Part shown: one piece after another, positions 1 to 39,700 of the stretch
Layout: each line of letters opens with the position of its first letter
Position numbering within the stretch: position 1 is the first letter of the stretch
From: Candidatus Omnitrophota bacterium
GTDB taxonomy: Bacteria; Omnitrophota; Gorgyraeia; Gygaellales; Profunditerraquicolaceae
DNA: 64,000 nt
Reading direction: 5' to 3'
NCBI GenBank assembly: GCA_049517335.1
Contig: JBEKSD010000004.1
Span: 1 to 64,000 of the forward strand
The notes under the pieces: model-generated
Told to the model about the DNA's origin: nothing
Seen by the model: only the letters and a program-made list of their open reading frames with translations
Database searches by the model: none
Made by a program: the position numbers and the translations under genes

Positions 1-20
1 GCAGAAAACAGGACAGGGTA

Positions 21-760: not shown

Positions 761-3700
761 TAAGAAAGAAACAAGAGGAATGCCTAAGGAAGTTAAGGTC
801 GGCATCCGAAACTGGTTAATGGCCAACTTAAGGGGACCCATGCAGGCAGAATTTAATTACATAAGTTATGCCTTAGGCCTGCCGATTGAGCGCGAGCCGT
901 CATTAGAAAATAGAGTAATTTTAAGATATTCAGAAGCATATGATACTGTGGGGGGTGTTGAATTCCATCTACAGAGTCTAAACCGTTGGCTGCTGGAAAG
1001 AAATAAAGGTTTGACTATTATTCAAGCTTATCTTACTGATAAGAGCTCTGGAGAGTGGAGTGAGAATGTTGGCAGAGGAAAAATAATTTATCTTCCTATA
1101 CCGAGGATTTACGATAAGGACTATAACGCTACAAAAACAGATGCATTAGTTGCAGAAAAAATAACATTCCTCCTTAAAGAATACTCAGTTGATTTGTGTA
1201 TTACTAATTCTCCTTATCACCATTCTTCGGTAACCTTCTGTAAAGTAGCGAAAGAAGCAGGTCTTCCTTTAATCGTCCAGTATCACGGAGGAGAGATGGT
1301 GCTTAATCGTAACCTTTCCGATACTCATCCATTCAATAATAATTTTTTATTTGCTAAAAGAAATTTGCGGGCTTGCATGCAATTAGCAAACGGTCGCGCA
1401 GGGATAAGTAATTCCGGTCTTAGCGAAATTAATTATGCGGATGCAGTAAATTTAAGTAACTCAGTAGATACCATATTCTTTGATCCACAAAAGGCAAACT
1501 GGGGTAGCGTTAGAAACCGTCTCGGCCTTGGCGGTAGGTACACCATCTTATTGCCTAGTAGAATTACTCATGATAAGGGGCAACTAGATTTACTTCGGGC
1601 ATGTAAGTTACTGAAGGATAGAGGATATGATTTTGTTGCTATATTTGTAGGAGATGTGAATGATGAGGTATACAAGACAGAGCTAATAAGATTTTTAGAA
1701 CAGGATACAGAACTTGCTTCGAGGGTTTTTATACTCCCCGCAGTTAATCAGGAAGACCTTAGAGACATGTATGCTGATGCCAATGTAGTAGTTTTGCCTA
1801 GTTATAATGAAGGATTAGGTAGGACAATTATAGAGGCCGAAGCTATGGAGACGCCCGTAGTTGCTTCTAATGCAGGAGGTATTCCTGAGGCATTAGTAAA
1901 TGAGGATACAGGATTACTCTTTAAACCTGGTGATATAGAAGCCATAGCCAAGCATATAGAATTTTTAATAAATGATAAGGTCGCAACAATTGAAATGGGC
2001 CAGGCAGGAAGAAAGTTTGTCCTCGAAAAATTCTCACCCCAAGCGCATGTCAGGCGTCACGAGGCATTTTATTGTAGATTTTTATTAAGGAGTTCTTTAG
2101 TCCATACAGCTGCTTCTGCAGGGAATTTATATCAAGATGCCGCTTATGGTGGATACTCCTTCACGCGCACATCATCTACTTCTCGGATACATGTTAAGCA
2201 TCATCCAGAGTTTTCCCCTCAAGAGGATGCTTTGGGTGTTGTTTCTTTTGGGTTGGTCATGGGTAAAGATGCAATTAGGACTACCTCAGAAGGCAATGGA
2301 CCTAATCAAAATATAGCACAGGATTATATGGAGGCAAATCTGGAAGGGGTATTAGAGAAATTGAAACAATTAATTGAGAAATTGGGTAGTAAGATGCCCA
2401 AGAAAATCTCCGACACACTGATACCGGTTGAGTTTTCTCCGGAGACTCCGTTAAAAAGGCTGGCAGAGACTGTCGGCGAAGGCAGCAATAGGAAAATAAT
2501 CTTTTCCTGGGCCATGATGACCCGCGCCCCGCCTCTCATCGCTCAGCTTACCATTGCCGAAGAAATCCTGCATTATTTCCTACCAGAATGCGATGATCTT
2601 ATCCATAACTTAATTGACGATAATTTTGTATTAAACACTAGTTACCATGAGTGGAAACATTTTGTCCGCAAAGCAGAACCGCGGGGAATATTTGTTCCGG
2701 CTTTCCGGTGTTTGAATTGCGGCTTAGATGTACCTATACCTCAAATAGGGGCGCATAGGAGGGATCATTGCCCGAATTGTTTATGGGCGTTGCATGTAGA
2801 TGATACAAGGCCGGGTGACAGGTTGTCTTCTTGTAAGGGTTTGATGAAACCGGTAGGGGTTGAAGTAAATACAAAGTATGGCTGGGATATAATATACTGT
2901 TGCACCAAGTGCAACGCCATAAAGAAAAACAGAGCCGCCCCTGATGATAATATTGATGAGATGGCACGTATTGTCCATCCACGCGTAATAACACAGATCC
3001 TTGAAGGCGGGCAAGAGGAAGCCAGCTCGTCGGCTGAGGCGGGAGCGCTTATCAGAGAAGGCGTTGACAGCTTCATTCTAGCCAACCTGCGTCATTTTAT
3101 AGAAGTCCAGCATTTACAGGTGCCTGAAGATACCCTAATAGAAATAGCCAGGATTTGGGAGAAGGCGCAGCAAAGCGGAAAGAAAGTAGACTTATCAGTC
3201 CTTGGTCTTGAAGAAACCGTAAGGATACGCATTGAGGATTTTGCCAATGATCCGAATGCTTTAAGAGGAGGAATCCCAGTTGGCAAGGATAATCAGCCCG
3301 GTAGTGACAACTCACAGGTTGGGGCTGAGGCGAAGCAGAGTGTTTCCCAGATGAACGTCTCCGGAAGCACCATTTTGGATGAGTTGAGATTTGAATCTGT
3401 GCTGGGAATGTTTATAGAAGATAGCGAATCTCCTCTGGTAACTACTGAGAATTTAATAAACCAAAACAGTGCATCTTTAATTATAAAAGGTCAAAGAGAT
3501 GGTGAGATATTTTATAAAATTGCAAGACCTGGAAAGAATAAAAAAGAATATTTGTCAAACAACGATGATGCTATCAGAGAAGCGAGGGTGTTGGCCCAAC
3601 TCAATAGAAACGGCTTAACCGGCATACCGAAATTGCTGGCAATTGGCGTAAATAAAGACGGCAACGTCTGGATGAAATTGCTGGGTATAAAAAATGCAGA

Positions 3701-6700
3701 GAATCTGCGGTCACCTCGCTGGCAGAGATTTACGCACTCTCAAAAACTAGATATCCTTATCCATACAGCAAATATAATAAAAGGCATGCATGAGGCAGGG
3801 TGGGTCCATAATGATATCGCCCCCAAAAACATTCTTGTAGATGAAGAAGCCAATGTGATGCTGATTGATTTTGGCATAGCTTGCAAGGCAGGGTGCAGAG
3901 TTCTTGCGGGAACAAAAGGATTTGAGCCTCCGGAAGAGCAGCGCACCGCTAAGTCCGACGTGTATAGTTTTGGCCAAACCTTGCGCCATCTGTTTATTTT
4001 TACCTCAGGGGAGAAGATGGCCCTGGATGACATCCGGACAAGCGGGCTACAGGTCCTTGTCGATGGAACGACGCAAAGTAATCTGGATAATAGAAACCCG
4101 GGAAATATGGATGAGGTTATAAATAACCTCAATGCCGTAAGGGGTTATTTTAAGATAAGGGGGAAATCTAAACCCGCGCCAGCTGCGGTCGCATCTCCGG
4201 CTGAGGCTCGGTCAGAAACCGCCTCTTCGCCTTCCAAAGGTACTATAGAAATCATTGCACCTTTAAATTCTCACGAGCAAATCGTACCTTTGATTAAAGA
4301 GTGGCATAAGGCTCATCCAAATAAAAAGCTGCTTATCTTCAATTTTGATTCACATAGCGATAAGATAGTTAGTGAAGATGCGGATGCCCTTGATTATAAC
4401 TGGGCTATGAAAGTTGAAGAAAAGGGAATGGCGTGGGTGATACATTTTGGTTCACAATACCGTAGTATGGGATATCGTATGAGGGATAATCTTTGGAGTC
4501 TTCCGGAGCGAAAAAAAGAGATATTGCGACAGATTCAGGCACTTAATGGGCAATACGACGAAATTTGGTTGACGATTGACTACGACTTTTTTTCAACAAT
4601 TAACCAAGCATCTTGGCTTACTGAAGAACCTCTGCCAGCTTTTATTATGAGTAGCAATGAAATAAAAGCTGCCCTATATGAATTAGCAGAATTTTTGATT
4701 TCAAATAATTTGAGGGTTACCCGTTTGATACCAGCAATAAGTTGGGGTTATTTGGGCGTATCGCAGGGTATGAAAGCAGAATATGTTGAAGGAATTACCT
4801 CTCAAATTAAAACTATTTTTGGCCGCCCGTTTCATGAGATTGCCGAAGTAGTCCATACTGATAGCGCTGCGGGCGAACAAAAATCGCCGCTAGCTGCGGC
4901 TGCGAAATCCACCGCCGAAAAACGAGTTTTTGGTCAAGGGGATTTAGAGCAGCACTATTTTAGTCCTGACGCTTATAATTTTCATACAGAGACTCTTGAT
5001 TTTCATGAGGATAGCGTTGTCAATATGGCGTTCGCAGGTGACATCATTGATATTGGTGCTGGTAGTGGTGTTCTTTGGAGGGAATCTTTAAGTCGTCTTC
5101 CAAAGATACGGCGGCTTACGTTAGTCGATCTTTCTGAAGCATCGCTTGAAAAAGGCAGGGAAATTGTTAAAGATAAAAGAGCAAGTTTTGAATATGGGAG
5201 TGCCTATGACGTTGGTAAAAAGCATGAGAGGGAATTCGATTATGCATTGATGCGAGGTGCGCTCCATCATTTTGAACATGCTCAAGAAGCAGTAAATAAT
5301 GCGGTTCAGGCATTGCGAGAACAAGGAAAACTTGTCCTTATGGATGTGCTTGGTTATGAAGATGCGGAAGTTGACAGCTTGTTTAAAACAATTACACAGA
5401 TGCGTCAGCCTTTAGATTATAAATTTTACTCTAAATCAGAGTTAGAACGCATGCTGACAAAGGCGGGTTTTAAAATTACAGAGTTTCGCACTAATGTTTT
5501 TGAATTAGATTTAGATTTGTGGCTTAGTGAATACAAAGACGCGGCAGGTGTTTTAAATCTCTATGAAAACGCACCGGAAAAGGCCAAGAAGGCCTTTGGT
5601 TATAGAAAGGCTGGGGGTAAAAAATTCGCTTCTTTTACCGCTTATGTTCTTGTTGCTTCAAAAGCCAGCTCGCCGATAGAAAATGTTCTCCTTTCAAAGG
5701 CTGAAAATAATCCGCCCTCCGCCGCGCCTACGCCCGTCGCCGCTAATACAGCTAATGCCTTGAGCGTGTTCTTTCTATTAGAAAACCCTAATCTCACCGT
5801 CAGCCTGATTTTAGCTTACTTCTTGGCATGTTTCTTTAGGCGGGAGATTCTTAATTCCTGTATTATTAGCCGCGCTCCTCCTTTGGTAAAACAACTCCTT
5901 ACTGCACTTCTCTCTCCCGAAAGACTTTTATTTTTCCTCAAACAGAAAACGTTTTCCTTTATCCGGTCGCTGCAGAGTTTTATTGAATATTTGGTTAACT
6001 TCTTCCATGGCTGGTGGGTGACCAAATTCACCGCAGCGGCCGCGAATATTTCAAAAGGAGACACTGCTAGGTTCCATACAGGCCATATACAAGATTTGCG
6101 ACCCACCCCCGCAATGATAGGTGCTATGGCAAGCACTCCCCAGCCGCTTCGGGTACTGATACTGAACAGTTCACCAAGTAATATTTCTCCTATGGATAGA
6201 TCTTGGATAGAGGGGTTCTTTAGAAGCAATGGAATAAATTTTGTTCTCAAGGAAGTTTGTGATGAGTATGGTAGAAATCTGCGTAATAGTGAATTTGACC
6301 TTATCATTTCAGATACTCGCGTTATGTATGCAGTCTCCCCTGGATTCATACACTCCCTAAGAGAAGAAGATTCACGCAAGAGACACCATACGCATCTTCT
6401 TTATTCTCATGGGTCTCATCGTAGCATAGATGAGGTAGAAGCATTTATCGACCAGATAGAGGAAGAATGGTTTCGTAATCAGGAGGCAATTAATAAGGCA
6501 TTGATGTGCGCACTTCAATCCATTAACTGTCTTAGCTATGCCCTGCACAGAGCCACTGGAATGCCGTTTAAGACAGTATTATCTTGGCTTGCTCCGGCTA
6601 GAGGTGCATTCAAAGACAACCGCTGGCAGTGGTATCTGGGTAGTGCGCTTAGAGAGTTAATGAAACAGGGTATCCCTGTGTTTCAAATAGATAACAGCGT

Positions 6701-9700
6701 TTTTATCCTGCGTTGTCGTAAGAGAGATATCAAGCTATTTAAGATCACAGAGAACCTGTGCCATGCTGAGGTGCTGGAAGAAGAATTTGACTTAGGCGGT
6801 AGACAGCAGATTAAGAGAGTTCCAGAAGTATTAGAAGAGCAGTTTGTGCGAGGCGAAGATAGCTGTCAATCGTCCACTGAAAATTCTGCTTTCAGAAAAG
6901 CAGTAAATGACCTTATCCGCTTCTTCTGCGGTAAAGATTTGCCGGCATTTCCATTCTATGGCCGCTGGGAGATTGAGAGGTACGTGGGAGATTTGTCTGA
7001 ATTGCCGGCCCTTGAGGCCAAATTAAAGGCAACCTTTCCGGCTTTGGCGAAGAACTTACCTCTTAGACTTTTGCGAAAAGAAGTATTTGCATGGGCAAAA
7101 ACCCATCACCCTGACGTCTTAAAAGAAGAGATAGAATCTGAGTTTGAAGGAGTAACTTTTAGATTTAGCGTTGAGGAGATAATTGAATATGTTTTAAAAC
7201 CTGATGGAGAAAAAGTTGCAGAGTATAAAAATCCCGTAAGGATAGTTTATAGAACCCCTATTTCAGATAGAAGCCAGGCAGCGCCTTGGGCATATAAAAG
7301 AAAGGCAGCCTTATTGAGGCTGATAGTCTATCGAGACGATATTGCTTCTGATGAAGACAAGGACCTCTACCGTTTGTGGACAAATCAGATTAGGTTCTCA
7401 GCTATATCAACATATGAATTCTCAGCTATATCAACATCTAAATTAGTATATATGCTTCACTCTTCGTCAGAAGCAACAGCAAGAGACATTACGGACGAGC
7501 TGGTAAGGCGTGCTTGGATAGAACCAGACTACGTTGCAGGCCTAATTGTAAGAGTAGCGTTGGGTGATAAAACCTGTCAGAGGGTAGTGATAGAAGCTCT
7601 GTTAGCAATTGCCACCAAGATAGATATAATTGCGGTTAAAAATCCGCTACTCGGCGCATTTGCTGACCCGTTATGCACAGAGCCAGCCGCAGAGGTCTTT
7701 TTAAAGATTGCAGCGTTAAGACCAGACCAAGTAGAGGATTTTGAACGGCACATTAAGCATATATTAGTAACTAATAAAAACGAACAATTCGTAAAGACAG
7801 CGGAAAAAGTACTTGCCTCGCTTGAAGCTAACACAGGGCACCTAGGTGATAAAGCTGCCTATTCAATTCTTATTTTTCCGATGTTTGCAGCTATGCTTCC
7901 TTCAACCGGTAAGCTCATCGCTGCTGTATTATTAATCTCTGGCTTCTTAATTTTTATTTTATCCAGAACAAAAGCATTTTGTAAAATTATCCGGTCGCTG
8001 CGGAATATTATAGAGTATTTGGTCAACCTCTTCCGTGGCTGGTGGGGGACCAAAAATCTCGCCGTAGCGGCCGGCCTTTCATGCGAGCAGGCAAATGAAG
8101 GCGAGATAAAGCTGTTGGAAAGATTCAAGACCCCCATTTTAGATAAAGAAGTAACTCCCGCACAATTTAGGGAGAGTCTCAGATTTATAAAGAGTATATT
8201 TAAAAAGGTAAATAGAGAGGTGGCTTCAAGATATGACATTAGGACTATTATAAAAGAGATAAGGTATGAAGATTTTAGAGACATTAGAGGTCAACCTTGT
8301 CTCCTGCCTTCGTGCAGACCCGGTAGAAAAGTAGTATTAAACGCAAATTTTATAAAGTTTATTGCCTACTTGAAAGCAAAGGGATTAAACAAAGCTCCTC
8401 CCCTAAAAGATAGTCAATCAGGTAAAGAATCAGATTTATTATCCTCCTTTGTTTATTCCATAGCCCTGCATGAAATCCGCGGACATTTTAAGATGTCCAA
8501 GGGGCAGCTTATCTTTAATAGCGATGAAGATTCTGCTCAATCTCAAAGAGGGAATAACTACCTATTTATAAATATTCTGGTAATCTTATTTTACTGGCTC
8601 TGCCTCGTGGAAGGACACACTGGTGAGGAGTTAAAGAGAAGGGCAGAAGAGTTTGTCAGGGCTAATCCACAGTATATATTTGAAAGGCTTGAAGGTTCAC
8701 AGAAGAAAGATTTAGTTTCGCAACTCGGTGAGCTTTGTAGTGCTACTTCCGCAATAAGGCCCGCGGTACGCGAATATGTAAAACCCATTGCTCTTTATAG
8801 GACAAGTAGCCGTAGAGGAGAAGCTGGTTGGAAAAGGGTCGTTACTGCCGCACTACTTCAGGGAGAGTTTCCTAATCTTGAGCTTGACCGAAGATTGAGG
8901 ACTGGAAAATCAATTTACTTCACAACCATTTGGGGTGATGAATTAGTGTTGTATCAGTGGAGCAAGCCTCCAGAGAGAGAGAAACTACCTCCTGGTATAG
9001 GGTTATGCCTAACAGAGCAGAAGCCAATCGAATTTATGGCCAGCGATGGTGTAACAATAGAACTTGGCTGCATCGTATTCCCTGCATCTACCCGCGTAGA
9101 TTGTTCCAATGAAGGCAGGTTGATAGGGCAGAATTTAGAAGCACCGTCATTCTGGCGTCGAATAGATGACCAACTGATTGTAGAGCGTGTAGGCGAAGAT
9201 AAGAGAATAATCATAGAGATTGTTGGTATTTTTGAGGAAGAAATCCATTTCAGATGCCGTGGAGATGAATCTACGATGATGGAAACAAGAGAAGGATTTA
9301 AGCCTTCGCATTCACTAGACCATTGTTTTTTTGTGGAATATATGCAGTTAGGAGAGATAGTTAGATTTAGCATAGGAAATGAAATTATAGAGGTTGAATT
9401 AGTGTCCCTTGACTACGGGGGCCAAAGATGTGAGTTAATCGTAATAGCTCCAGGTAATTATAAGGTAATGTCTGCAGAGTTTAGAAGAGAATTCTTCATT
9501 GATTCAGATTCATCCCGTTCATTTCGTGTCGATTTAAAAAAGAGATGGAAATACGCCTCTCCTGACCTTGAGGTTATCCGTACGAGAGGTTATATAAAAA
9601 GATTTGCAGTGAGAAATCCTGATGGAAACTTTGAATTAGTAAGAGGAAAGAGTTTTGGCTTTGCCGGTTTTATTCCTATCATTGGTTTGTTACACGAAAA

Positions 9701-12700
9701 TATCAATTTATTTTTACCTGCTATTATTGCACTCACAACAATAGTAATTATTACTACCTATTTCCGTGCTCCGTTAGAAAGAATTTATTTAATCGTGAGT
9801 TCTCGCCTCGCCGTGGCTGGTGGGAGAATTCGCAGCTTTCTAACGGGGCATGGCTGGTGGGTGACCAAAAATTTCGCCGCAGCGGCCGGAATGATAATTC
9901 TGACGGGATTAGCTTATTATTTTCTTGGCTTGCCACATCTTCTTTCTGGTCTAAACACGGCAGTGCTGACCCTGATGCCGCTTATGGGTATGGTGCAACA
10001 TAAGCGAAAAGGATTTCCGGCGCCTATCCTTCAAGAAATTGAAAGGCGTCTGAAAGGAGAGCAGCGCTTAGAGACAAATCAAGCACCAAAACATGACCCG
10101 GCTCGCACTAATAAACCTTTACGCAATAGAAAAGTCATAGAAAAGCTAGAAAGTATAGTTAGAGAGCAGGGAGACGAGATTACTACCTTTCCTGTTGCGC
10201 AAGACGCTTTAGAAGTCCGAGAAAAAATAGCCCAGCTTCTAGAAACGAAAAATAAAATAGCAGCCACTGCTTTAAGAAGAGCAAAGATTATACGCGCGCC
10301 TCCAGAATCTGTATTGATGCAAAGAATAAGGGAATTACAAGAAGAACATAAGCTTAAGGTTTATGCGCTTAATGACGCAGATAATACAATTATTATCATC
10401 CCCGAGAATAACCCCACAGAGTTAGAGCTCTCCAAATCCCTCATCTATGAGGCCATCGTCATTCGCTATCGAACTAATATGAAGAGTCTTCATAACTACG
10501 CGCGCAGGGTAGCTATAGAGTTAACGCGTCCTACCGAAGTAAAGGAAGTCGTTACTCGTATCTCCACAATAGAAAAGGATTTTACTGATACCGCTGCAGC
10601 AGAAGAACCTTTTAGCGGTATCCCCTTTCAGCGCGGAGTGGATGATCAACTAATCGTGCAAGGTATAGACAACGGAGGAAAGAATACGTTGATCATAGAA
10701 GTTTCTTATATCAAGGGAGCAAGAATTATGATTAGGATACGTGCTCCAGAATTTATTGAGGTAGAAATGCCCGGTGTTCCTAGCGTATCGCAAACAAATA
10801 CCTGGAAATTTTTTGCTAAGCAGGGATCTATATTTACCATAAAAGATACCCAGAGGCATGAAGCCATAAGAGTAAAAGTGGAATTAATCCAGCCGGCTGG
10901 GAAAGCCTGGGTTTTAAAGGTTGAACTTCCTCCTTGTTTTACTATAGAGCGTGCGGAGGATAGAAAGGTTACTATAGAGGGTTCTCCGGTTGTTGATTTA
11001 CCAGTCGGATATAAATACTTCCATTATGGTCTTGACGCCATATGCAGAAAAGGGAAAGATAGTTCAGAAATAATATCAAGGGGAGCTGACGGAAGATTCA
11101 ACCAGCAAACCGACCGCTGTTGCGACGGGAAAAACCACCTTGAAACTATCGCTTACCGCCAACGCATTATCCAAAAAGCAATAGCCGCCAAAGTAACTGA
11201 GGAAATTGCTTGGGGGCATATGGAAGATATTGCAGGATATTTTGAACGGTACGGATTAGATAATTTAGCTAATTTAATCAGGGCGATGTGGGAAAAGAAA
11301 TTCTTCTGGATTGTGTACGGGTTTCAGATTTCAAAGCGATACAATACCGAAACTTACCAGGTTGATTTTGGCGGCGGTTTTATTGCCCATGATGGCTGGT
11401 GCTTCATTCAATCCGGAGGCACTGCAGAACTCAATGAAATCGCCGTACTCTTCCACGAGTTCTTAGCTCGCATAGGCCTTGAACACGAAATCAGTGAACG
11501 CCTGACTGATTATTTTAGCAAAGGAAGGAGGCCTATACCGGATACGATTACGGTAAAAGGCAAGAAAATCAGGATTAAAGACAAGCTGAGAAAAGTTTCA
11601 TCGCGCATTGAAAATTTGCCTGCAGTAAAAGAGCTTCATGACCGTTCAGCCGATAATACGAGACGGCCAGATAACCGGTCGCTGCGTACTGCAAATAGGA
11701 AAAGAATTTTAATTTCTAAAGGATATTTCGGGGATCTAACACCGGAACAGATTGAACAATTTACACAAGACATAGGAGAAGGAATTATAACAATTGAACC
11801 CATAAACGAATTCAATACATACAGAATACCGCTTAATGGAAAGTCTGCGGAGTTTTACTTATTAGGGTCATATTTACGTAACCCGCCTTTTATCTTTGCT
11901 ATACAGGAAGAAGGCGAGGATATCTTAAAGGTTATCTTCTCAGATCGAGCCTTGAATAGATTTAAAGAGGCATTTCCGTATAATAAACCAGCACAGAAAG
12001 GGGCGCGCATAAAAGCATTGAAGGCAATCGCTTTTCATGAAAAAATTGAAATGGAATTAATAAAAGAAGGGACGGATCCGGAAGACGCTCATGAGGAAGC
12101 AGCGAGGCGGATAATTAGCTTATACCCTAATGACATAATCATAATCCATACTATAAACAATATCTTTTCTGAAGATTCAGGAGTAAAACCGCAACGAATA
12201 GTCTCCATAAACCAAAGCGGTTCTTCACCCGAAAATATAGATTTGCTTGATTGGGCTAAAGATTCTATGTTTCGGGGATTGGTAAGATTAGTGGAATCAG
12301 GTCTGGATGATTTTTCTGTCTTGTTAGAGGCCGGTCAAAAGCTTCCTGCTAAAGAAGGGCAGCCTTGGAGAAGATATATTTCGTACCTTGCACGCGTAAA
12401 AAATGAATTTATTCAAGAAGGCGTTTCAAAAGAGGAAATCTTTTTGCAGATATGTGCTTTGATAAGTGAAAGATGGTTTGAAAGTCAAGGATACATTATT
12501 TATGAAGGGGCATTAATGGATCTTCCAAGTATTCCCTTCTCTCTAATCATCGCTAAACTTACTAGAGAAACCGAATATTATAGGATTATTGATCGTATAA
12601 TTCCGCTGTATTTTGTAAAAGATGCATCTTTAATGAATACCGAGAAAAGTTTACCTCACTTCGTAGGAGGTTGGTACGCTAGTGGTAGATGGATATTTGA

Positions 12701-27700: not shown

Positions 27701-30700
27701 TGCTGCTGAGGTTTATCCGGCCACGCAAATAACTGGTATTGAGCTAGAGAGGGAGTCTTTTGAAGAAAGCTTAAGGTGTCAGGAAGAAGCAGGGGTTGCC
27801 AATGTTGAGTTTATAAACTGTGATGCCTTAAGTGAGGAGATAGATTATTCTCAGTTTGACGTAATCTATATGTACTTTCCTATTACTTGTGATTTAGGGT
27901 TCTACCATAGTTTGGCTAAGAGATTAGCATCGCAGATGAAGCCGGGAGCGCGCTTCGTCTGCTTTAGGGTTCAGAAGTGTAGCGGGGAAGAAATGCGCCG
28001 TATAAAGAATTACCTAAAGGGCAGCCTTACAAAACTAGTGTATCAGAGAAAGTTTAGTTGTGATTCGTTTGTACTTCCTAAGGTAGGGGCGTCATGGAGA
28101 TTCTGCTCACCCCATATGGGGGAAGTGTATACAAAGCTGGCTGAGTTGGCTTTACACAAAGAACCCGCGTTTGCACCGGAGACACCCCTTAACCGCGGCA
28201 TGTGCCCGGATAAACCTGACGCCGCGCCAAAAGGTACCGTCTCCTCTCCCGCCACCCCAAGAACAAAACCCACTCGTAGGACTAAGGGCGATTCCTTCAG
28301 CCAATTTGCAGTTATCCTTGGTATTATCTGTTTCAGCCTTGCCTTGACCGCGCCCTGGTGGTTGCCAGCGCTAAAGCTTATTCTCGCTGGCATAGGTACG
28401 GCCATCGCTGTTCTTGCCCCACCGGTTTCTTTCAAGCTCCTCGCCGCAGGCGCAATGATGGGGACGATGGTTGAGAATAGTAATTCCGCTGGCAGCTTCA
28501 AGACAGATCTGAAAAAAGGAGAACAATTTAAAGTCCCTGGGCACAATGTCTGGATTACGTTTTTAGGCAAAGTAACCCTACAAGACGAGGATACTCTTGA
28601 GTTTTACGCACCCGAATACATCATCGCATACGGCACTGAAAAAAATTACATAGGAAGAGGAACAAGGCCTTTTGGGAAGTCTGTAAGAGTAGGATGGCCA
28701 ATGTTATGTTATGTCCCAGATTATGCGCCAAAAATAAAAAAATCGTTTGTAATGACCGTAGAAGATATTGATGAGGCCGCAGAGACAGTAAGTATAATTT
28801 TTGAAGGAGCGTATGAGTCAGAACCGTGCCTGCGATCTGATGAGACGGATGAGAATAAGGCAGGGGTATGGGGGGTTCCGGCAGGAAGGGTAGATTTGGA
28901 ACCCAACCTAAAAAAACTGGATTCTGATGATGAAACAGAACAGCAAAGCGCGATGAAGGAGATTCTCTCCGTTGGAGAATGGATAGTGCCTCGTTTACAA
29001 GAGGAAACACGTAAGACAGAAGAGGCTTTAAAGGAGGAGATAGGAGGTAAGGCAAGGGTTTATAAAATAGAACAATTAACTAAATTCAGGGCCTCGCTTC
29101 TTAAATTGTTGCGTTGCTTTGCCATGCAAACCTGTATTATGCAGTATCTCCTTGAGAAGAAGCGCGACGATATCATCAACGCTATTTTGGAAAACATTCT
29201 AAGCGTGCTCAGGCATAAACTAAGCGCGGACTTATGGAGTTTCTTCTTAAGCATCGGTGTGTCGAAAACAATCGAAGGGAGAGATTATATACTCTTTGAT
29301 GTTGATTGCAAGTCCCAGACCAAACTCGCTGATATTTTTGATGCGATGGATAAACATCTATATCACAAGCGGCTCTATCTCGGAGCTGCACCACTTCTTA
29401 CGCCGTCAGATTTCCGCAAGATTAAACTTGAGCTTTCTGGATGTAGAGATGAGGTACAGAATCAATTACTTGGTATGGTCTTGGGGCATATGGATAAGCC
29501 AGATGATGGGAGACTTGAATGTAATATGGGTTTCCTCGGGAAAGACTGGCCGGTTACCGTAGGAAAAGAATTCAGGGAAGCTGCTGGCTGCTGGTTAATC
29601 AGAGTTGACACAGGGCATCCTGCATACGGCACAGTTTATTATGAAGTTTCTGCGAAGAAAACATTACGCAGATTTAAAGAAGTCCAATCCGCCCCGTCGC
29701 CCGCCACTACTGCGCTACCGAATAAGGACACAAAGGAGAGTCACCCTCAACATGCTCGGGTGATTACACAACTTTTTGGGACAGCCTGCTTTGGTCTGCT
29801 AAGCCTCGTGTTTAAGCGTGATACAAGAGTCATAAAAGGGTTCTTAAGAGTGGCTCACGAATCTTATATAGAAAAAATAGATTATCTTAGTAATTTAGTT
29901 ATCCGCGGTCCGCCTTTAGGATTAGGGTATATTTTACTCATCCCTGCTCTTCCGTTTATACTCTTCCTCGCTTTTATCCTGCCCATCGCTACTGCAGGAG
30001 AACTAATTCAATGGCATATTCCTGATAATGGGCAAGGTCTTTCCGAGTTCGTCAGGAATTCAATCGTTATCCACCATGAAAATGCACATTTAAAAGGCGA
30101 AGGAGAACTCTTTGCCCTCAAAGCCCAAGCCGAAGATTTCCAGAAAATACCTACGCCGCAAACCTTAGAAAGTTGCCCTACAAGCACCGTATCTGCAGCA
30201 AGGATTTTCGTCAGCGTCTTCACAAAAACATTGATTGTAACCGCTTTTATCGTAGCCGGTATTTATTTATGCTTACCGGATATCTCACTGTGGGAATATT
30301 TTGGTTCTCCGGCACTGATATGGCCAATAACCGCTCTGTTAAGTGTCACTAAGTTAAGGGCCTTAATCAGTTTTCTTATTTTCATACCCGCAGGAGAAAT
30401 CTTAGGCCAGTATATTAATATTAAGCTGGCTAACCCCGGCGAGAAGTCGTTTAGGCTAAATTTTGTCTTACGGATGTTCCTGGCTACCCTATTACTTTTT
30501 GGATGGTTTTGGTCATTGACTTACCTATTATGGGTTGATTCTTTGCCACCTTATTTAATCGGCCTTGCCGACCAGGTGAACACTGCTTTTATTTCAGTTT
30601 TTATCATCTTTCTCCTGCACAGGCAATTTAAAAATCTCTTCCAAAATGTTGGCGATGAGATTCGCACGATGTTGCCGGAATTGAGGCAGGCAGTTGCTAT

Positions 30701-33700
30701 TTTAATGCTAGCGTGGGCCTTGGCATTAGGGATTATATTTTCAATACCTTGCAGTATGGAAACAAAAAGCATTATTGTGGCTATCCTGCAACCATTCTCC
30801 GCTATTACTATGTCCTATCTAGCGAACAGGAGATCTGATAGAGGCGGGCAAATAGAATTGAGGGAGTGGGCAAAACCAGTATTAGTTTTCACTCTTGTCT
30901 TTAATTATCTTTTCTTTGTGGTCGGCACCATGTGGCTTCTAAATATTCCCCGCCTTCGTATTCCTATGCTCCTCACAGGCGTATTTTTCTATGTTGCGGT
31001 AGTTTTATTGGGGTTTAGAAAATCCGTTCCTATGCCGGCAGATGCTTTGCCACTTCTCCAGAATTGCCTTACTATCGCTTGCCTTGATAACTATGCAAGA
31101 GGGCCAAAGAATATATTTAGTGACAGAAGCGATATTAATCAGAGGTTGCGCGAGGTTTTTAGATACGCCGGGCCTTCTATAGAAAATTTTGCCGGGCATA
31201 ACAACCTGATAATCAATGAACCGCAATTGCGCTTTATAAACTGGTATTCAAGTTTCATGGGCGAGGATAGACCTATATTTGATATATTGTATTTACAGGG
31301 ATTATACCGCCTTATACTAAGGTCAGTGAATTTTAATTACAATTTTCAAAAGAATTTTGCTGCCTTATCGATGGCAACTCAACTCCTTTTTCTCAATAAG
31401 GCCAATGAATCCTTAGGCATCATTGAAGGTGAAATTACAGCAGCATATTTGCGTAATCCGGCCAATAGAGGAAAATTAGCTTATCTTTATGAGACAATCG
31501 GTGTAGTCTATATGGTTTCCTACGACGAAGAAATACCCAGCATGATGGATGAAGTTTATATCAATTCTTGCCTTGCCTCAGCAGGCCTGAATCTCTACCG
31601 GTTAACACATATGACGATTGATGAAGTTGAAGGTATTCTTAATATTAACCCTTCAAGGATAACTTCGCGGCGGATATCATACCAGGATGAGTCGGAGGAG
31701 AGAGCCTACTACAGGAGGCTACAGGCAGATATAGAGGCCGCATGCGGTATTACCCCGGGAAAACAATCTGCTGCACGAGCAGATTTGGATGTAATGGTAT
31801 CTTCCCGAAGAAGAACCGAATGGGGACGTAACAGAATGCTCTCCGTTCCGATGGAGGATATCGACCATGCCCTGATAGATTTATTTAGAAACAATGAAGG
31901 CAAATTCATCAGAGATACTTTGAGTAAAAAGGTGGGCCACGAGATTGCCTTAAAACATATTGATAATCATATAGTTATAGAATTAAGGAACGAAGCTGCC
32001 CGTAGCGGCATATATAAAGTGTACACCGGAGTAAGCGAGGGGGATAGCGGTCAATTCAAACCATGCGCTTTTGGCTTGGCGGTTGCAAAATGCGATTTTT
32101 TAAATAGGGCCGTAGAAAATGAGTTTAATACAGTAAATCATTTTCGTCAGATTTGCCGTTATGTAATGCAGCCCTACTGTTGCGATAGGGTTTCTATTTC
32201 TGTCGCGGGAATAAATACTGAATTAGCGGTATTTTCCATGGAGTGGAAAGAGGGATTTGAAGAGGTTAATTTTGTTTCAAGGCGGTTGGCTCGAGACAGG
32301 CCTGAAGATTTCGGGGATTTGGTGCAACCGGCAGAAAGTGGCGCAGGAGTTGTTCTATCCGCCTACAATCCAGCACGGGGATTGACAACACTTGTGCCAC
32401 TGGATAATGAACAGACCGGCAGGAATATCAAAGAAGAGATAGTAAAGATTATCACACTCTGTTTTGACCCCGAGAAAGGCGAGAGATTAGAAGACTCCTG
32501 TTTTAATGCCGGAGATTTTGTCTACAATCCCGATACAAAAGAAGTTTCCCTTATAAGCTGCAGGGGGATTCGGGCCATGAATCAAGAAGGAATGTTTGAA
32601 TATACCAAAGAACAGGTCAATGTATATGATTTTATATTTTGGTTGTTATCAACCAAAACGATCTCTCAAGGAATTTGTTGGTTGCCTCCGGGCCACTGGG
32701 GCGATTACGAAGAGATTATCTTTGAACCTCAAGATGTTTTTAATGGAATTAAGAAAGCACTAATAGAGAAATATGGGCCAAGGGAAGGTATCAGGAAGCT
32801 GGTGGTATGGTTTAAGTTTTATAACGAGGTAACTAAAGACTCTTTGGCTCACTTATTAAAGGATGCGGAGCCGCCCGCTGACCCTGCCGCTTGCAACCCA
32901 GCCGGAGTTGCGCGCACGACGAGCTATGGCCAACGCTACTATGAATTGCTTAAAGATGCACGTTGGTCTAGTCAGGTTCGGGCCTGGTTCATTAAGGTAT
33001 TCGTTACTCCATTTATGGAACCGATTGATTTTATGCGTAAGCCAGGAGGATTTGCACGGTTCATGGCTGCTCATAATGATATCTTGGGTAAGTCATCCTT
33101 GCATAAGGCAGCGCAAGTGTGGTTTAGGCTTCTGAGAGTTGCCCTGCGGTTTAAAAACCCGTTTATCAAATGGGGGATTTGGGGTGTTGGTTATATCCCT
33201 GCAGTAATCTCACATTCATTATACAACCTTGGCCTTCGTCCTCAAGGAGCAGCGGTGGGAGTGGCGAGGAAGAATAATCGAGGAAAGCCGATTCAGCCAA
33301 GGCGAGACCAAGAGTTAGAAGCTCTTGTTGAGTCGATTATGGCAAGTGGACAGCAAGAACAAAAGATTTCTGGTGGGATTGAGATAAATATGGTTACCGG
33401 TCCAAATAAGAAAAGATTTGTGCCCGCAGAAGGGCATACTGCTTCACCGTCGGTCACGCTCTTTCGTGATCGTATTGCAAGAGGAGAAATCTCTGAACTT
33501 GTAGATTTGTGTGGCGAAGAGGAAGTTCAGATTCTTCTGGCTAAGTTAATTGATTCAGCTGATTTTATAGTTGAAGTACCTGATACCCCAAAACATGAAG
33601 CAATCATAGATACTGTATTAAGATTAAAAGCAAAGATTGATCTAATCCAGATGATTAGTATTGCTATGGCGATGGAAGCAGTGGTCAATCACCTCAAGGG

Positions 33701-36700
33701 AGAAAGAAAAGATTATGCACCATTACTCGGATACCTTAATGAGTACCTTATTAACAGTCATACGCGCAACAAACGTTTGGCGCAGATGTACGGTAGTATT
33801 CCAGCTATTAGCAGCGCTACTCAGATACAAAGGTTGGAATTGTGGGGAGTAAAAAGTGGCTACCATGCGGATGTAATTCGGGTAGAGGTGAAACTGGTTG
33901 ACCAGCGCACGCTCCGTTTTGCGGTCAACGTTAGCAGGGATTTACGTGATGCAGTAGGTGAACTGCAAAGGGCCTTTGATTCATTAAAAGCTAAATTTGC
34001 CCAAAATTCTACCTATATTATGGAACCCTTCACTTTGGGCATCGGCAACGTATCTTCATGGCGAGGCGAGGAGTCAGTGCCGCTAATGGTAAGCGAATGG
34101 CTTGATGGATTTGACGAACTGCATCTGATGGAGACAACCGGTTCCCGTATACGTGTACGGTATGGCCAGGATGAATCAAAGGACGCTCTGCCTGAGCCTG
34201 AAAGCGACCAGGTCTGGCAAACCATGACAAGAATTAGGACTCTATATTCCGAGCTGACTACCGAGAAAGGCACTGCATTACAAGCACACGTCATCGCAGG
34301 GGACTTCGTTGGGAAAAAGAATGCAAAGGGCGGGTGGGAAGTAATGGTAGTTTGGACGCAAGATAATATTCGCAAGCAATATGCGCGGGAAGAAATTGTC
34401 TTAAATGCCTTGCTGCAGGGTGAAGTGGACTTTCTGTCTAGTTATATTTTTTGTCCAGGCGCAATATTGTGGGAGCGTTTTGATTTGGCCATTCCAGCAT
34501 TTGTGGCAGGTTTTGTTGAGGCAGGAGGAAGAAAGGAGAATGCCTTAGAAATACTGCGGCTGGTTTATAAAGAAACCCTACCAAGGATATTAAAGAGTTC
34601 CGAATCACACCCTGTGGTTATACGTTTACAAGAAGCCTATGGAGAGGAAATTTTAGTTAGGTTGAGGAAACTCCGGCGTGCCATAGGGAAGTTCTTAGGA
34701 GAAGAAGATGCCGAGCCTAGAAAACAAGAAGTATCTGACGAGGAATCCACTGATAGGCCATCGTTGGTGCAAAATGTAGAACTCGAAGATATTATTGGAG
34801 CCCATCCATTTAAAGTGCAGGCGGTGGTTGGTCCGGATAAAACTCCTCTCTACGGAGAAGATGGAACTTTTCTTTCTAATAAAGGACCTACCATAGGAAC
34901 ACTTGAGCAATTACGAGGCTTTCCTTATCAAAAGTTAATTGCCGACTTAAAAAGAGATTGTAATATCAGCGAAGAAATGCTTTTGTTTATTTTAAGAAAG
35001 AGCCGTAATATTCGTGGCGTTATGGTTCCTACAACGTTGGAAAAAACTATTTTACCTTATCTCGATGCTATTATCAAACTTAAAAAAGCCTTACTTACTG
35101 CCAGAGTTCTTGATGGCGAAGAAATCATTCAAGCAGTAATGCTACATTTAGCCGGAGCAGATTCTTCTTACCAAAACTTGCTACGTTATATAAATCATAT
35201 CCTTTCCAACCAAGGACAAAACCCCAGGTTTGCTGCTATTCTTTCTTCGGAAGATAAAGTAAAGAATGTGCAGGAAATTGAGAGCCTTGAACTATGGTTT
35301 GTCAAAGAAGGCTCTATTACCGAGGTTGTTGCAGTTGAAGTGCAATTACGCGATATTGCCGGCAGGCAATCAAAGGTTAGATTTGTAGTCAATGTTCCCC
35401 TCGACCGCACAAAGTGCGTTGAATGTCTGAGGCATGCTTACTCTCGGCTACATACCTACTATCAGCGTAATCCCAGTTTTGTTATGGAACCTTTTGCTTT
35501 AGGCACAGAAGAGGTACCGCTACTTGTCGGAGAATGGGTGGAGAATAGTGATGAGTTACATTTATATCATGAAACTGGCGCAAAGCAATTTCATGTCTGG
35601 GCAGGGCAGGAGCAGAGAAAAGATGTAATACGCTCGGTTGAAGATTCGCGGGAAATTTGGAAACAGATTATTCAGGCTAGGGTTATGTATTCGCAGCTCT
35701 TACCTGAAATGGGAATCCTACCCTGCTTATTGTTTGTTAACCGGGGGGATTATGTGGTCTATGACGATATGCAAGGCAGTCCCCATGTCGTTTTAATTTG
35801 GGATGGCAGTTTGAGTTTATATAAAGGTATCTATGAAGATATCAAGGTTTTTAACCCCGTAGATATTGTAATAAATATGCTTTACATGTTTGACCGAGAT
35901 TCTGATAGCGGGAAGGAATATCTTATCTGTTTTGATGAGCCTGATTTGGCTATTCAGATTTTGGAAGAAACCTTCCCGCTCTGTCAACCCTATCCTGAGC
36001 TAGCCAAGAGCTTACTCCAAATGTTATTTATCACGGCTTACACTGAGGGTTTTCCAAGTTTAATTGAAATGCTTAAACCAGAAGAATCTCTTGGGAGACT
36101 TTTAGATTCGAGCGAACAACCAAAGCTATATGCCGCAGCAGTAAAGGCTTATGAGGCACTGGGTAGATATTTGAAAGGAAAAGAAACAGGCTTGGGTGGG
36201 ACCGGGATTTATTCGCAGGAAGAAATAAAGCAGATGATTGAAGAAGACAGAAGAGCGGGTAGGATTGAAGCGCCTTCAGCGCAACTTAAGCGGAAACTCT
36301 CGTTTGCGAATTTCCTAGCCAGCCCCAACATTATCTACCTGCGCTATATAAAAGCGCGCGGCCTGATTAACGCCCCGCCGAAAGTCCGTGGTTACCAAAT
36401 CATTAACTCCGAACGAATCCGCTTTGGTGCCTGGCTTTCTGATAACGGCGTTCTTTACCTTGAAAGACCCTACCTTCCCCAGAACCTCACCCTGCTTATC
36501 TCCCACGAACGCATAGAAAAAGTAACTCAAGACCACGCGCTAGCCCAGCGTTTAGCGCCCCTGATTCAGCTGCTATCAGCTAACCCGCCAACAGACACAT
36601 ATCAAATGGTGCAAGTCCCCGGGACCAGGATTATTATTTATTCATCCCGAGATATTCCCCTGTCAGATGACTATACCTTGATGTTTGTTAATCTAATTAC

Positions 36701-39700
36701 TAGGATGCCGCGCTTTTTTAAGAGAAAGAAAGCGCTTGATATGGGAACTGGTTCCGCAGCATTAGCCAAGACACTGTTAGGCTATACCAATATGGAGAAG
36801 GTGGTCGCCAGCGATATAATACCACAAGCGGTAGAGCTTGCGCGGATAAACTTAAGTGAAGAAATTAGTGCTGGGCGGGCTCTAGTAAGACAGAGTGACC
36901 TTTACGAAAACATTAGGGATTTGTTTCCGTTTGACGTTATCCTTTTTGCTAATCCCTTTATAGAAGGCGATCCTGACAGGAAGAATATTCTGAGCTATTC
37001 TACAAAAGCAGGGAAAGGGTATTCAACCGTTATCAAGGCATTACAGGGATTGCCTCAGGCGCTTACGCCGGGTGGTAACGCCTTTTTCGTGGCGACGTCG
37101 GGTTATCTCGGTGAAAATTCACCCTTCTTAAATCAGAGAGATCTTAAGAATAATGTGCCTGCTGGGTGGGATGTGCAAGATGTAGGCGAGTCTTACGAGG
37201 CCCGTCAAGGGATTTATTTCTCCGTGTTTCGGGTCTATGACCTATCAAAAGAAAATGGAGGAGTGTATGTTGAGTTGACGCCGGAAGCGCCACGTTTCCA
37301 TTTAGCTGCGCCGCAAGAGTTCAGCGAGTTAATGCGCGTATTAAGACAATACCTGCCAATATATCATAGAAGAGTAGAATCGCCCTTCGCTCCCGGACAT
37401 TATCCTGGGCGACTTATCCCAGCGGATTTGTCCTGGAGGGCTCCTCCAGAAAAAGCGCAGAGAGAATATTTTGAGCGCGCCTCTAAGCAATATGAGTTAA
37501 GGTATGACTTTGACCCCACGCTTGAGACAGTTGCCGAGTGCTCCTTGTTTGGTGCAACAGCCACCTTTTCAAGCGAACTTCTGGCAAGGGCGCCTCCTTT
37601 AAAGGATACCCGTAACTCCCAACTCTTCCAGGTCCTGATTAATGAATTCTTACGCCATGAAAAAGGCCATTCCGAAAATAAATTAGACCCGCAAATCCTT
37701 ACCGAATCCTTAAACTATTTCATAGCCAATCCAAAAGAACTAAAAGATTTCTTAGAGGCACTCAGGGTCTTTGGCGTAGAGATTACCGATAGGAAATACC
37801 TCGCTGAATTAAAGAAGATAGATAGTCTCACATCAAAAAATAAACCCGTAAAAGCCGCTCCTGAGCCGTCATCCCATGCCTCCAGCCTCATAAGAACCCA
37901 ACAACCCGTTGGTTATTATCTTTTGCGGTATCTTATGTTTATTGATGGTCTAACCGAACAATACAATCTCGTCTCAAGCTTGCAAATTTTCTTCTTCGGT
38001 AAAATGCCGGAGAAGTATTTTAAGTTCAGGAAATTCGGGCTTTCAGGGGCCCAACAACAAGAGGCTCTTAATCTCCTTATGAGAGTCTATAAACAGATCG
38101 TTTCTCAAATGGACGAAACATCTCTGGATAGAGAGCTACTTCAAGATTTACTTAATGGTGTTGTAGATGAGGTCGCTAGGATATACCGGATATCTTGGCA
38201 GGATTTCTCGGATGGTTTTGATGCATCGTTGAGAGAAGATAAAGATGTTGTTGACAGAGAGTTCCGAATTTTCTTGAGTTATCTCGAACCTTGCTTACAG
38301 GAGGAAGCTTCAGATAGAAAGTGGCGTATTGCACAATTCTCTCGAGAAGTAAAGAGTAAGCTCCATGACGTGGCCCTCATTTATTTGCTTCAAAATATTC
38401 CTCTTCCCTGGCAAGTTGGTAAGACCAGAGGCAAAGAAGTTTCATGGAGACAAAAGGGTAAATTCTGGGTATTTGCCACGCAACATTATGGTTGGAAGGG
38501 TGTTTGCTATATAGAGGTGGTTTATGCAGAGCAAGCTGATAACCAGCCGATTTATGTTTATTTCGGCGCTTCGCCTCCAGCAACCGTAATAATTGATGAA
38601 GGACTTTATCGGGAATACGCAGGGAGTAATCGCTCCACCCCCGCCATGCAGCCGACGGATGATACCAAAGCTCGGTTGGCTGAGGCGATGGAGCAAGACC
38701 GAAAGGCTCTGTGGGCTGCGCTTGGGAGAGGCGACACCAGCGTTCAGGGCAACGAGCACGTCCTTGCCTTATCGATTCAGATTGCAGCAGAAGAAGAAGC
38801 TAAGCGGCCACATTGGCAGCGGTTGCTGGTAGTGTCAATTTTCTCGTCGTTCTGGTTTGCCCTCGTGCATATCAGAGGTGTGGTGGATATGGAAAAGGTA
38901 AGAGCGGGAGACCCGAATCTGTGGCGACATCCGAGACTTGGTGAACTGTGGAGTCTGTTTTGTTTAGCTCAGGCCACGGACAAAGTTTATCGAAAAAAAT
39001 ATCACGAGGCAGTCAAGCACTCTCTGGGGTTAAGGTGGCAAAAGGGAATAGCCCGGCAGGATGCCTTTGCTGAGGCAATCCAGGTGCATCAGGAATTTAA
39101 CCGTGCGGCCTTCTTGCAGAAAATCCCGAAAAAATATCATCCTGCCTTAACTAGCCTCTTTGCTCAAGGCGTGCCACGCGTGCCGGCAATGGCGGAAAGA
39201 GAGAATGATGATGAATTAATAATTATTGATCCAAAAAAAGGCACACGCGTAAGAACTATTGATTACAAATCCCCAATTCAACTTATTCTTGGGAGCGAGG
39301 GAAGCAAGAGATTCCTAATTTTAAAAGCCAAAGATTACCTAGAGCTTTGCGGAAAAGATGCATACCCCATAAGTGACTCTACTAACAAGAAGTTATATTT
39401 ATTTGAATTAATCGACCCTGGAGGAGAAAAAGTTATTCCACACGCGCCTCTTGAATTGACAGCAACAACCATTTTGCCTTTAGGTAGCGATATACCTGAC
39501 TCAGTCTCTGAAAAAAATTGCTCTATTAACTTAGCATTAGCAGGTGAAGCTAAGTTAACGATAACTGTCGATGTTAATACCAATGGAACAGCATATAAAG
39601 AATGTAGTGTTGCTTCATTACAGGCTTTGCTGACGCAGGGATATAGAATTTATGACAAAAAGGCAGCTGAGCAGACAGAAGCTAGAGATAGAAAAGCCCA

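Follow-up and report, generated by a model that had tools for sequence, protein, structure and literature searches.

The 64,000-nt stretch of DNA analysed here (hereafter, the window) is the first 64 kb of contig JBEKSD010000004.1 (C4) of a Candidatus Omnitrophota genome (GCA_049517335.1; 1.45 Mb, 31 contigs, 92% complete) and begins with a giant open reading frame (ORF) (3..42797, + strand; 14,264 aa). The ORF is open at its 5′ end, where the contig starts inside a GT1 domain whose N-terminal half is thereby missing, and Pfam assigns to it two GT1 glycosyltransferases, RNHCP, a protein kinase, several methyltransferases, a DUF294 nucleotidyltransferase, FAD/NAD Rossmann starts and ACT, FHA and Fic domains, with long unannotated stretches remaining. 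A first-pass annotation made from the sequence alone had described a recurrent RAPP motif coupled to metallopeptidase-like helices along this region; all 20 of the coordinates it gave lie in frame 0 of the giant ORF and carry the sequence that it reported. Our analysis revealed that the giant protein holds at least seven copies of a previously unnamed module of ~140–200 aa, belonging to six subfamilies (A, C twice, D, E, F and G), plus a candidate copy at aa 2797, with all of the modules encoded by the one ORF. We consider it highly probable that the modules form a superfamily with a zincin fold. On balance, we also favour the view that this new superfamily of small (~140–200 aa) zincin-like modules probably represents embedded metallopeptidases, some copies of which are inactive.

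Ten RAPP-like sites are present in the giant protein: RAPP at aa 841, 1957, 3431, 6913, 12479 and 12529, KAPP at 2797, RNPP at 3959, RGPP at 9968 and NAPP at 12123. The strings KAPPLKD and RAPPLKD both occur, and the helices listed are EEILH, HEIRGH, YEAIV, HEKIE..AH, HGLVE..AH, HENAH, HERIE..H, HEKGH, HEFLA..H and HEFSS..H. RAPP is more frequent than chance would allow, with six observed against 0.16 expected from the composition (0/2000 shuffles reached six); no other of the 12,838 distinct tetrapeptides in the giant protein is as over-represented as RAPP (37-fold over expectation, Poisson 2e-8). RGPP occurs once (0.13 expected), while HExxH (3 versus 0.44 expected) and HExxE (5 versus 1.6) show weaker enrichment than RAPP. 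The RAPP codons at the ten sites differ synonymously, indicating that the signal lies in the protein and ruling out a DNA-level repeat as its source.

Seven of the 10 sites fall in modules, all on the forward strand (+). The subfamily F module (2292..2714, aa 764–904), recovered as a hidden Markov model (HMM) match, contains RAPP 841, EEILH at aa 853–857 and a second His ~11 residues further on; in the subfamily F alignment (A4, 17 sequences), P78, P79, E88, E89, H92 and H103 are invariant and R76 is kept in at least 90%. Also recovered by HMM, the subfamily E module (10017..10562, aa 3339–3520) has RAPP 3431 followed by the helix YEAIV, where relatives have HE; the alignment of 15 sequences contains RAPP in 11/15 and HE in 14/15. 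Subfamily C is represented twice, by copy 1 (11700..12173, aa 3900–4057; RNPP 3959, HEKIE..AH 4012) and copy 2 (20583..21020, aa 6861–7006; RAPP 6913, HGLVE..AH), the latter with Gly replacing the catalytic Glu. Across the subfamily C alignment (A3, 14 sequences), the H, E and H of HExxE..H are invariant and PP is conserved in at least 90%.

In the subfamily G module (29706..30302, aa 9902–10100), RGPP 9968 is followed by a hydrophobic segment (9970–10003), HENAH at 10025 and then GE. The five aligned sequences of this subfamily carry RGPP, RGPP, KAPP, RAPP and RGAP, with a hydrophobic segment between motif and helix and HExxH in 4/5. The subfamily D module (36162..36665, aa 12054–12221) has NAPP 12123 and HERIE..DH 12168, and among its 10 aligned sequences PP occurs in 10/10, R[AG]PP in 4/10 and HExxE..H in 7/10. 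Finally, the subfamily A module (37386..37841, aa 12462–12613) encodes the conserved RAPP 12529 and HEKGH 12552, plus the non-conserved RAPP 12479. Ala-Pro is invariant in the subfamily A alignment (A2, 30 sequences) and H91 is present in at least 90%, the consensus reading YPAxL..., xTxxGxxADxxTxxGKIxILxxLAxRAPPF......SxxFQxLINDIIRHExxE....SHxxAC..S..YF...P.EL.

The remaining three sites do not fit, and the earlier claim that the RAPP copies are part of one domain stands for seven of the ten and is not supported for RAPP 1957, RAPP 12479 and KAPP 2797. RAPP 1957 (5871..5882, +) adjoins hydrophobic segments, has no HE helix and has an internal paralog (aa 2633–2693) without the motif; by sequence, it is probably not a module. 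RAPP 12479 belongs to the N-terminal portion of the type A module, and alignment with 29 relatives shows no conservation at its position. KAPP 2797 belongs to the candidate module (8181..8723, +), which has HEIRGH at 2823 and a weak match to the D profile (aa 2780–2801); both relatives found lack any xAPP, yet keep HELAH or HEFGH at the position of HEIRGH, so that KAPP, itself not conserved, adjoins a conserved helix of the HExxH type. Two further helices stand without RAPP, namely HEFLA..H at aa 3818 and HEFSS..H (16329..16484, +; aa 5443–5494, HEFSS at aa 5473). The latter weakly matches the strand-helix part of the E profile, and its independent E value of 5e-4, obtained against a one-sequence database, makes it a lead only.

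Homologues were sought in 150 genomes drawn from the order per search, and absence elsewhere is to be read as not found in the genomes searched. The type A segment (RAPP 12529 plus HEKGH 12552) matches giant ORFs in 8/41 relatives' genomes, its own included, and a 10-sequence type A profile has matches in 37/151 genomes of the order, all of them in open frames of 1,124 to 68,606 aa. Every subfamily of the window recurs within the same order in giant ORFs, which reach 68,606 aa. A search with a relative's module returned seven loci, five of which (5/7) are labelled Candidatus Omnitrophota and one of which (Dolosigranulum, E 4e-5) is probably spurious; the related-locus search with the window's own module gave no match. 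Among 1.84 billion representatives, the A2 profile retrieved 87 proteins at E <= 0.001 with lengths of 103–6,743 aa, many of which we take to be contig fragments.

Single open frames of 68,606, 57,756, 59,091, 40,752 and 39,957 aa are present in relatives G010:C1, G021:C5, G071:C2, G082:C40 and G143:C62, respectively. These relatives' genomes measure ~1.5–1.9 Mb, the G010 ORF accounting for ~14% of its genome. Subfamily E modules lie 1–4 kb from type A modules within one ORF in G021:C5, G143:C62, G120:C96 and G120:C116, and this proximity in several relatives hints at a conserved order of module types.

Profile comparisons link the subfamilies to one another. Aligning A3 with A2 in hhalign (probability 86%, E 5e-6) placed RAPP on RAPP and HE on HE, with a hairpin-plus-helix insertion after RAPP in subfamily C, and A4 aligned with A2 with a probability of 89% (E 2.1e-6). 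Furthermore, in one relative's module the first half is of type A and the second of type F, and a seventh subfamily (B), found in relatives only, presents a helix, RAPP, three strands ending FIHPYFFSL and then HExxELETGSH. Together with the alignments of each site with its relatives, these comparisons uphold the idea of a divergent repeated domain and show the modules to be homologous to one another. Other comparisons did not join the sites: BLAST of the giant protein against itself found 12 repeat pairs, none joining RAPP sites; the type A HMM reached the other sites of the window only below threshold, its iteration converging at 43 domains; and hhalign of single 250-aa segments against A2 gave probabilities of <=28%, the best ‘random’ controls overlapping the same sites. 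A first seed HMM from three sites was discarded, the 12123 site being misaligned in it.

The AlphaFold (AF2) model of type A, computed from A2, has a predicted local distance difference test score (pLDDT) of 93.5 and a predicted template modelling score of 0.88, with a pLDDT of 96 around RAPP. It is composed of a strand, helix 22–36, strands 39–43, 50–52 and 58–62, a short helix (63–67) and RAPP (68–71), C-terminal to which are helix 76–96 (HE at 91–92) and helices 101–114, 116–128 and 136–151. Foldseek returned no match for this model at E <= 0.001; its first ten matches were selecase and jannalysin (best E 0.015, prob 0.99), then PprI and abylysin. An independent structure aligner, run over 48,161 chains, likewise ranked selecase first (Z 8.4, root mean square deviation 2.9, 95 aa), ahead of abylysin (7.4), jannalysin (7.3), BlaR1 (5.6), the predicted zincin 3e11 (5.4), M48 enzymes, SPRTN, YbeY, aminopeptidases and Wss1, although Hsp90 C-domains were also among the matches (Z about 5). 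For the type C model (pLDDT 85.8), the matches were Ste24p (Z 7.1, 127 aa), ZMPSTE24 (7.0), BlaR1 (5.8), selecase (5.2) and BepA (5.1). A backing helix, mixed sheet, active-site helix and ligand helix were found in both models, and zincins fill most of the top ranks. Since the two independent models both lead to the same group of zincins, with agreement between the two aligners and a fitting motif, modules A and C are predicted to have a zincin-like fold, in keeping with the shared fold anticipated by the first-pass annotation, here in the two subfamilies modelled.

The conservation pattern of the helices is consistent with a metal site. The 101 non-redundant type A modules comprise 25 with HExxE..His, 35 with HExx(x)H followed by Glu/Asp, eight with another HE form and 33 with no HE. 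His and Glu exchange in a compensating manner between the +4 position and the position ~10–11 residues after the first His, as expected of a metal site with three ligands, and a His or Glu at the latter position accounts for the third of these. Most type A modules keep the Glu adjacent to the first His, the general base of zincins. By subfamily, HExxH is found in 4/5 G sequences and, as HExx(x)H..E, in 35/101 A modules, the other forms being HExxE..H (25/101 in A; invariant in C), EExxH (F) and HEAxA (E). From these sequences, His-Glu and two further ligands appear to form a covarying triad, HExxE..H or HExxH..E. As had been supposed, HExxH and HExxE..H turn out to be metal-site variants; the two ligand positions covary, and EEILH, YEAIV and HGLVE prove to be aligned variants or degenerate forms of one helix. 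Within the window, the triad looks intact in copies 3959, 9968, 12123 and 12529; an intact site is possible in copies 2797 (HExxxH) and 841 (EExxH, a conserved variant); and copies 3431 (YEAIV) and 6913 (HGLVE) lack a key residue.

Judging from the models, the nearest known folds are those of the minigluzincins and the M48/M56 peptidases. Minigluzincins (selecase, proabylysin and projannalysin; 4qhf, 4jiu and 4jix) are free-standing archaeal proteins of ~110 aa and resemble type A both in size (92–96 residues aligned, chains of 104–109) and in the sequence of a helix, a three-stranded sheet, the HE helix and a next helix with the third ligand, which in selecase lies ~11 residues after the first His, as in the modules here. 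In contrast, the modules sit inside giant proteins, have no sequence match to minigluzincins and add RAPP, a YPxxL segment at the N-terminus and two further helices at the C-terminus; many of them have HExxE..H, whereas minigluzincins have HExxH plus a third ligand. The type C model is matched best in structure by M48 (Ste24, HtpX, BepA) and M56 (BlaR1), and the hydrophobic segment before the HExxH helix in subfamily G is reminiscent of membrane-embedded M48/M56 enzymes. Unlike M48, however, the modules are without the M48 N-terminal membrane domain and have their third ligand much closer to HExxH.

A sequence link of subfamily F to M48 is suggestive only. The subfamily F segment matches ORFs of 373–379 aa in three relatives (E 8e-6, 6.7e-4 and 7.7e-4), and the two that were scanned, L124 (G065:C42) and L125 (G091:C71), are true Peptidase_M48 (PF01435, E 2.7e-24 and 1.8e-25). 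In the resulting alignment, ...RAPP-LIAQLTIAEEILHY falls on ...KYTP-DEIEVILAHEFAHY and EEILH on HEFAH, which puts RAPP on the M48 connector between strand and HExxH helix. L124 and L125 are free-standing Ste24-like M48 peptidases (Peptidase_M48_N plus Peptidase_M48), the third match being in G051.

Several points weigh against the assignment to metallopeptidases. None of the A2 members (0/30) and none of the scanned window modules (0/8) match M48 (PF01435) or M56 (PF05569) in Pfam at the curated cut-off, NCBIfam holds nothing relevant for the modules, and the A2 profile retrieved only an irrelevant transketolase (E 1.4) from the PDB sequences. Aligning A4 or A2 with a true M48 sequence in hhalign was not significant (E 0.13 and 0.098). 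The Z values of the fold comparisons are middling, best values of 7–8 often being obtained, as the tool itself notes, for models that have no true relative, and the homologue counts come from related, non-independent sequences. The 33/101 type A modules without HE mean that many copies cannot be enzymes. Lastly, RAPP and the metal are likely >20 Å apart in the type A model, which speaks against a catalytic Arg and against the cutting of a module's own RAPP. Beyond these families, the A2 members share no Pfam family (18 different singletons over 30 members; the window copy hits DUF922 at E 0.16), and the ESM Atlas gave no match >=0.9, rank 11 being a cluster with 10% Peptidase_M78 members.

If the modules are metallopeptidases, copies with an intact triad and Glu (3959, 9968, 12123, 12529, perhaps 2797 and 841) would be putative Zn-dependent peptidases within a polyprotein, cutting either the giant protein itself or other substrates, while copies 3431 (YEAIV) and 6913 (HGLVE) would be inactive. 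The giant protein is of the same kind as the giant proteins of other Omnitrophota (‘Archaeovorins’ and others), in which glycosyltransferase, methyltransferase, kinase and other enzyme domains are combined in one ORF. For these, the parts of a preprint considered here propose cleavage into smaller products, at sites that are not known, with C39 and S8 domains as candidates (bioRxiv 10.1101/2023.11.21.568195). Processing of the giant protein is a reasonable target; self-processing by these modules is a tentative suggestion drawn from the sequences, and one that we rate at less than even odds. The repeated, embedded zincin-like module is nevertheless a concrete candidate for a processing enzyme of giant bacterial proteins; in the portions of the Omnitrophota giant-protein preprints considered, only C39 and S8 domains are named as such candidates. 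The modules also give a recognisable domain to unannotated stretches of giant proteins, a domain covered by no public family library. The earlier description of a spacer between cargoes holds only loosely, in that modules occur among enzyme domains.

The conservation of RAPP is the most interesting point of the system. Across subfamilies, RAPP is the most conserved feature, above the metal ligands. HE is present in 49/55 type A modules with exact RAPP and in 19/46 without it, an association that was counted on related sequences and so permits no valid statistical test. In type A, the motif follows the third strand, five residues before the long helix whose far end holds HE, whereas subfamilies B, D and E have it between a helix and the first strand; it is always upstream of the HE helix. 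Such a constant identity at a varying position in the fold is unusual for a purely structural turn.

Enrichment of the motif extends to relatives. The 68,606-aa protein contains six RAPP against 0.7 expected, and the 87 related proteins contain 53 RAPP (1.0 expected) and eight RGPP (0.8 expected), counts that are biased by the selection of these proteins with the type A profile. Outside type A envelopes, the 87 proteins still hold 13 RAPP and all eight RGPP, and 13/21 of these R[AG]PP are followed by HExx[HE], HExxxH or EExxH within 106 aa, against a background of 9.9%. The claim that most RAPP copies are followed by a metal-ligand-like helix is supported by the modules and by these sites; RAPP 1957 has no such helix. 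In the rest of the genome (six-frame ORFs >=150 aa, 446,100 aa in all), RAPP was found twice (2.4 expected) and RGPP not at all (2.2 expected), and both RAPP occurrences were judged by sequence inspection to lie in doubtful short ORFs. The combined depletion (2 versus 4.6) was not significant.

One explanation of the motif, compatible with a zincin fold, is that RAPP/RGPP acts on the ribosome as a programmed pause or arrest upstream of the catalytic helix, pacing or gating synthesis. In the parts of the study by Fujiwara et al. considered here (EMBO J 2025, PMC12992588), RAPP and RGPP are arrest cores refractory to elongation factor P (EF-P), in which no other residue can stand in for Arg, Gly in place of Ala permits or strengthens the arrest and Ser/Asp/Pro permit it in part; the same source reports RGPP and RAPP as the most excluded tetrapeptides in many bacterial phyla. 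The arrest core R-[AG]-P-P, on which the first-pass annotation had not remarked, is found in the window six times as RAPP and once as RGPP and is conserved in relatives. Such a role would fit the 37-fold enrichment in the giant protein, the excesses in the 68,606-aa relative and the 87 proteins (6 versus 0.7 and 53 versus 1.0) and the low count in the rest of the genome, as well as natural variants that are mostly RGPP, RSPP and RAGP. It would also fit a motif that keeps its identity across seven subfamilies sharing little else, metal ligands included, and that occupies different places in the fold while remaining upstream of the HE helix. Arrest peptides of this kind (ApdA and ApdP, and SecM with RAGP) share the four-residue core with the modules, whose natural substitutions (Ala to Gly, Ser) are similar in range to the arrest-permissive ones (PMC12992588). 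In RAPP-type arrest, the ribosome stalls with Pro-tRNA in the A site.

However, as reported there, RAPP/RGPP alone is insufficient for arrest and an N-terminal context is needed, and the RAPP-type arrest peptides known so far are small secreted proteins or membrane proteins that carry the motif close to their C-terminus and whose genes lie upstream of the regulated ones (PMC12992588). Here, by contrast, the motifs are internal to a 14,264-aa ORF, occur many times in it and lie in a folded, enzyme-like domain, confidently so in the type A model. Loss of RAPP accompanies loss of HE, which points to a link with protein function; KAPP, RNPP, NAPP and IAPE, which are non-permissive, occur at the same position; and the depletion in the rest of the genome was, as stated, not significant. 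We regard a programmed pause as unlikely. Its most explicit form, in which RAPP/RGPP has been kept as a built-in checkpoint at which the ribosome pauses upstream of each zincin helix, we consider more doubtful still; translation would then resume once the chain already made has folded, been inserted into the membrane or been pulled, which would pace the synthesis of chains of 14,000–68,000 residues and delay the completion of each protease. Either stalling does not occur on these ribosomes or in these contexts, or it is tolerated or put to use. Bacteria are reported to avoid RAPP and RGPP because of the translation arrest that they cause, and a family that conserves them so many times, whether by tolerating or by exploiting stalling, would be informative about such arrest and about how long proteins can become. 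The main texts of the Omnitrophota giant-protein preprints, without their supplements, contain none of the terms ‘RAPP’, ‘zincin’, ‘stall’ or ‘arrest’. As a separate observation, a 3′-open ORF of 938 aa on contig C30 (− strand) carries two copies of ...YLRxIAxKGLIRAGPYA..., RAGP being the SecM-type arrest core; this context resembles those of window sites 2797 (YLKAKGLNKAPP) and 12123 (YIKARGLINAPP).

It is likewise unlikely, in our view, that the modules are non-catalytic throughout, serving as pseudo-peptidase scaffolds or peptide-binding connectors in which RAPP is a structural turn (a helix cap plus a Pro-Pro kink). The one-third of type A modules without HE (33/101) and the window copies 3431 and 6913, which are without a catalytic residue, would be readily explained in this way, as would the position of RAPP at the N-terminal end of a helix, far from HE, and the invariant Ala-Pro core of the motif in A2. 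The compensating His/Glu swap and the invariance of H, E and H in A3 and of EE..H..H in A4 argue otherwise, as swapped and invariant ligands point to a metal site that is maintained, with its general-base Glu, in most copies. Moreover, four identical residues are rarely maintained by a purely structural turn in subfamilies whose divergence exceeds what an HMM can detect.

A third possibility, which we rate as very unlikely, is that RAPP is a cut or recognition site, one per module, used by neighbouring zincin modules in trans or by another protease. BlaR1, an M56 zincin, cuts itself within its zincin domain. That RAPP is coupled to HE modules at varying fold positions is what would be expected of a short linear motif, exact RAPP and HE disappear together, and cleavage of giant Omnitrophota proteins has been proposed, at sites not yet assigned (bioRxiv 10.1101/2023.11.21.568195). 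A cut at RAPP would, however, part the sheet from the catalytic helix in the zincin core; the type A model shows RAPP as well ordered, zincin cleavage before or within Pro-Pro is unusual, and RAPP persists in 6/55 type A modules without HE. As for chance, that is, unrelated RAPP strings and common HE helices in a very long protein, the three sites not conserved in relatives (1957, 12479 and the KAPP of 2797) are what it would predict, but alignments refute it for the other seven of ten, and with 0/2000 shuffles reaching six RAPP (Poisson 2e-8) and the motif conserved at aligned positions with relatives in up to 37/151 genomes, it can be set aside with near certainty.

With embedded zincin-like modules as the favoured reading, the remaining features of the locus can be described briefly. 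Downstream (3′) of the giant ORF are ordinary genes for PilZ, a sugar ABC transporter, MFS, glycoside hydrolases, ROK, LacI, ribonucleotide reductase and GidA. Contig-end open ORFs on C22 (1,651 aa) and C30 (938 aa) could be upstream parts carrying the missing N-terminus of the giant protein, but neither has similarity to the window ORF. The GT1 copy at aa 503–628 also matches the Pfam family GT4-conflict (E 4.8e-13), and the RNHCP domain (aa 894–978) lies directly 3′ of the subfamily F module. Taken together with the Fic, FHA, kinase and nucleotidyltransferase domains, they make up a set reminiscent of conflict- or effector-type repertoires.

The giant protein also contains internal repeats. 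Three paralogous segments (aa 7145–7219, 8027–8110 and 9414–9497; nt about 21435–28493) share 61–77% identity and have in common a hydrophobic stretch, a glycine motif (AGIG) and an xAPP[VT]S[LF] string, these APP strings lying outside the zincin modules; the one at 7225 scores as an FAD/NAD Rossmann start. A further repeat pair (aa 11202–11451 versus 11687–11933) shows 33% identity over ~250 aa, and a triple repeat (aa 13062–13541, ~36% identity) lies N-terminal to the FHA and Fic domains.

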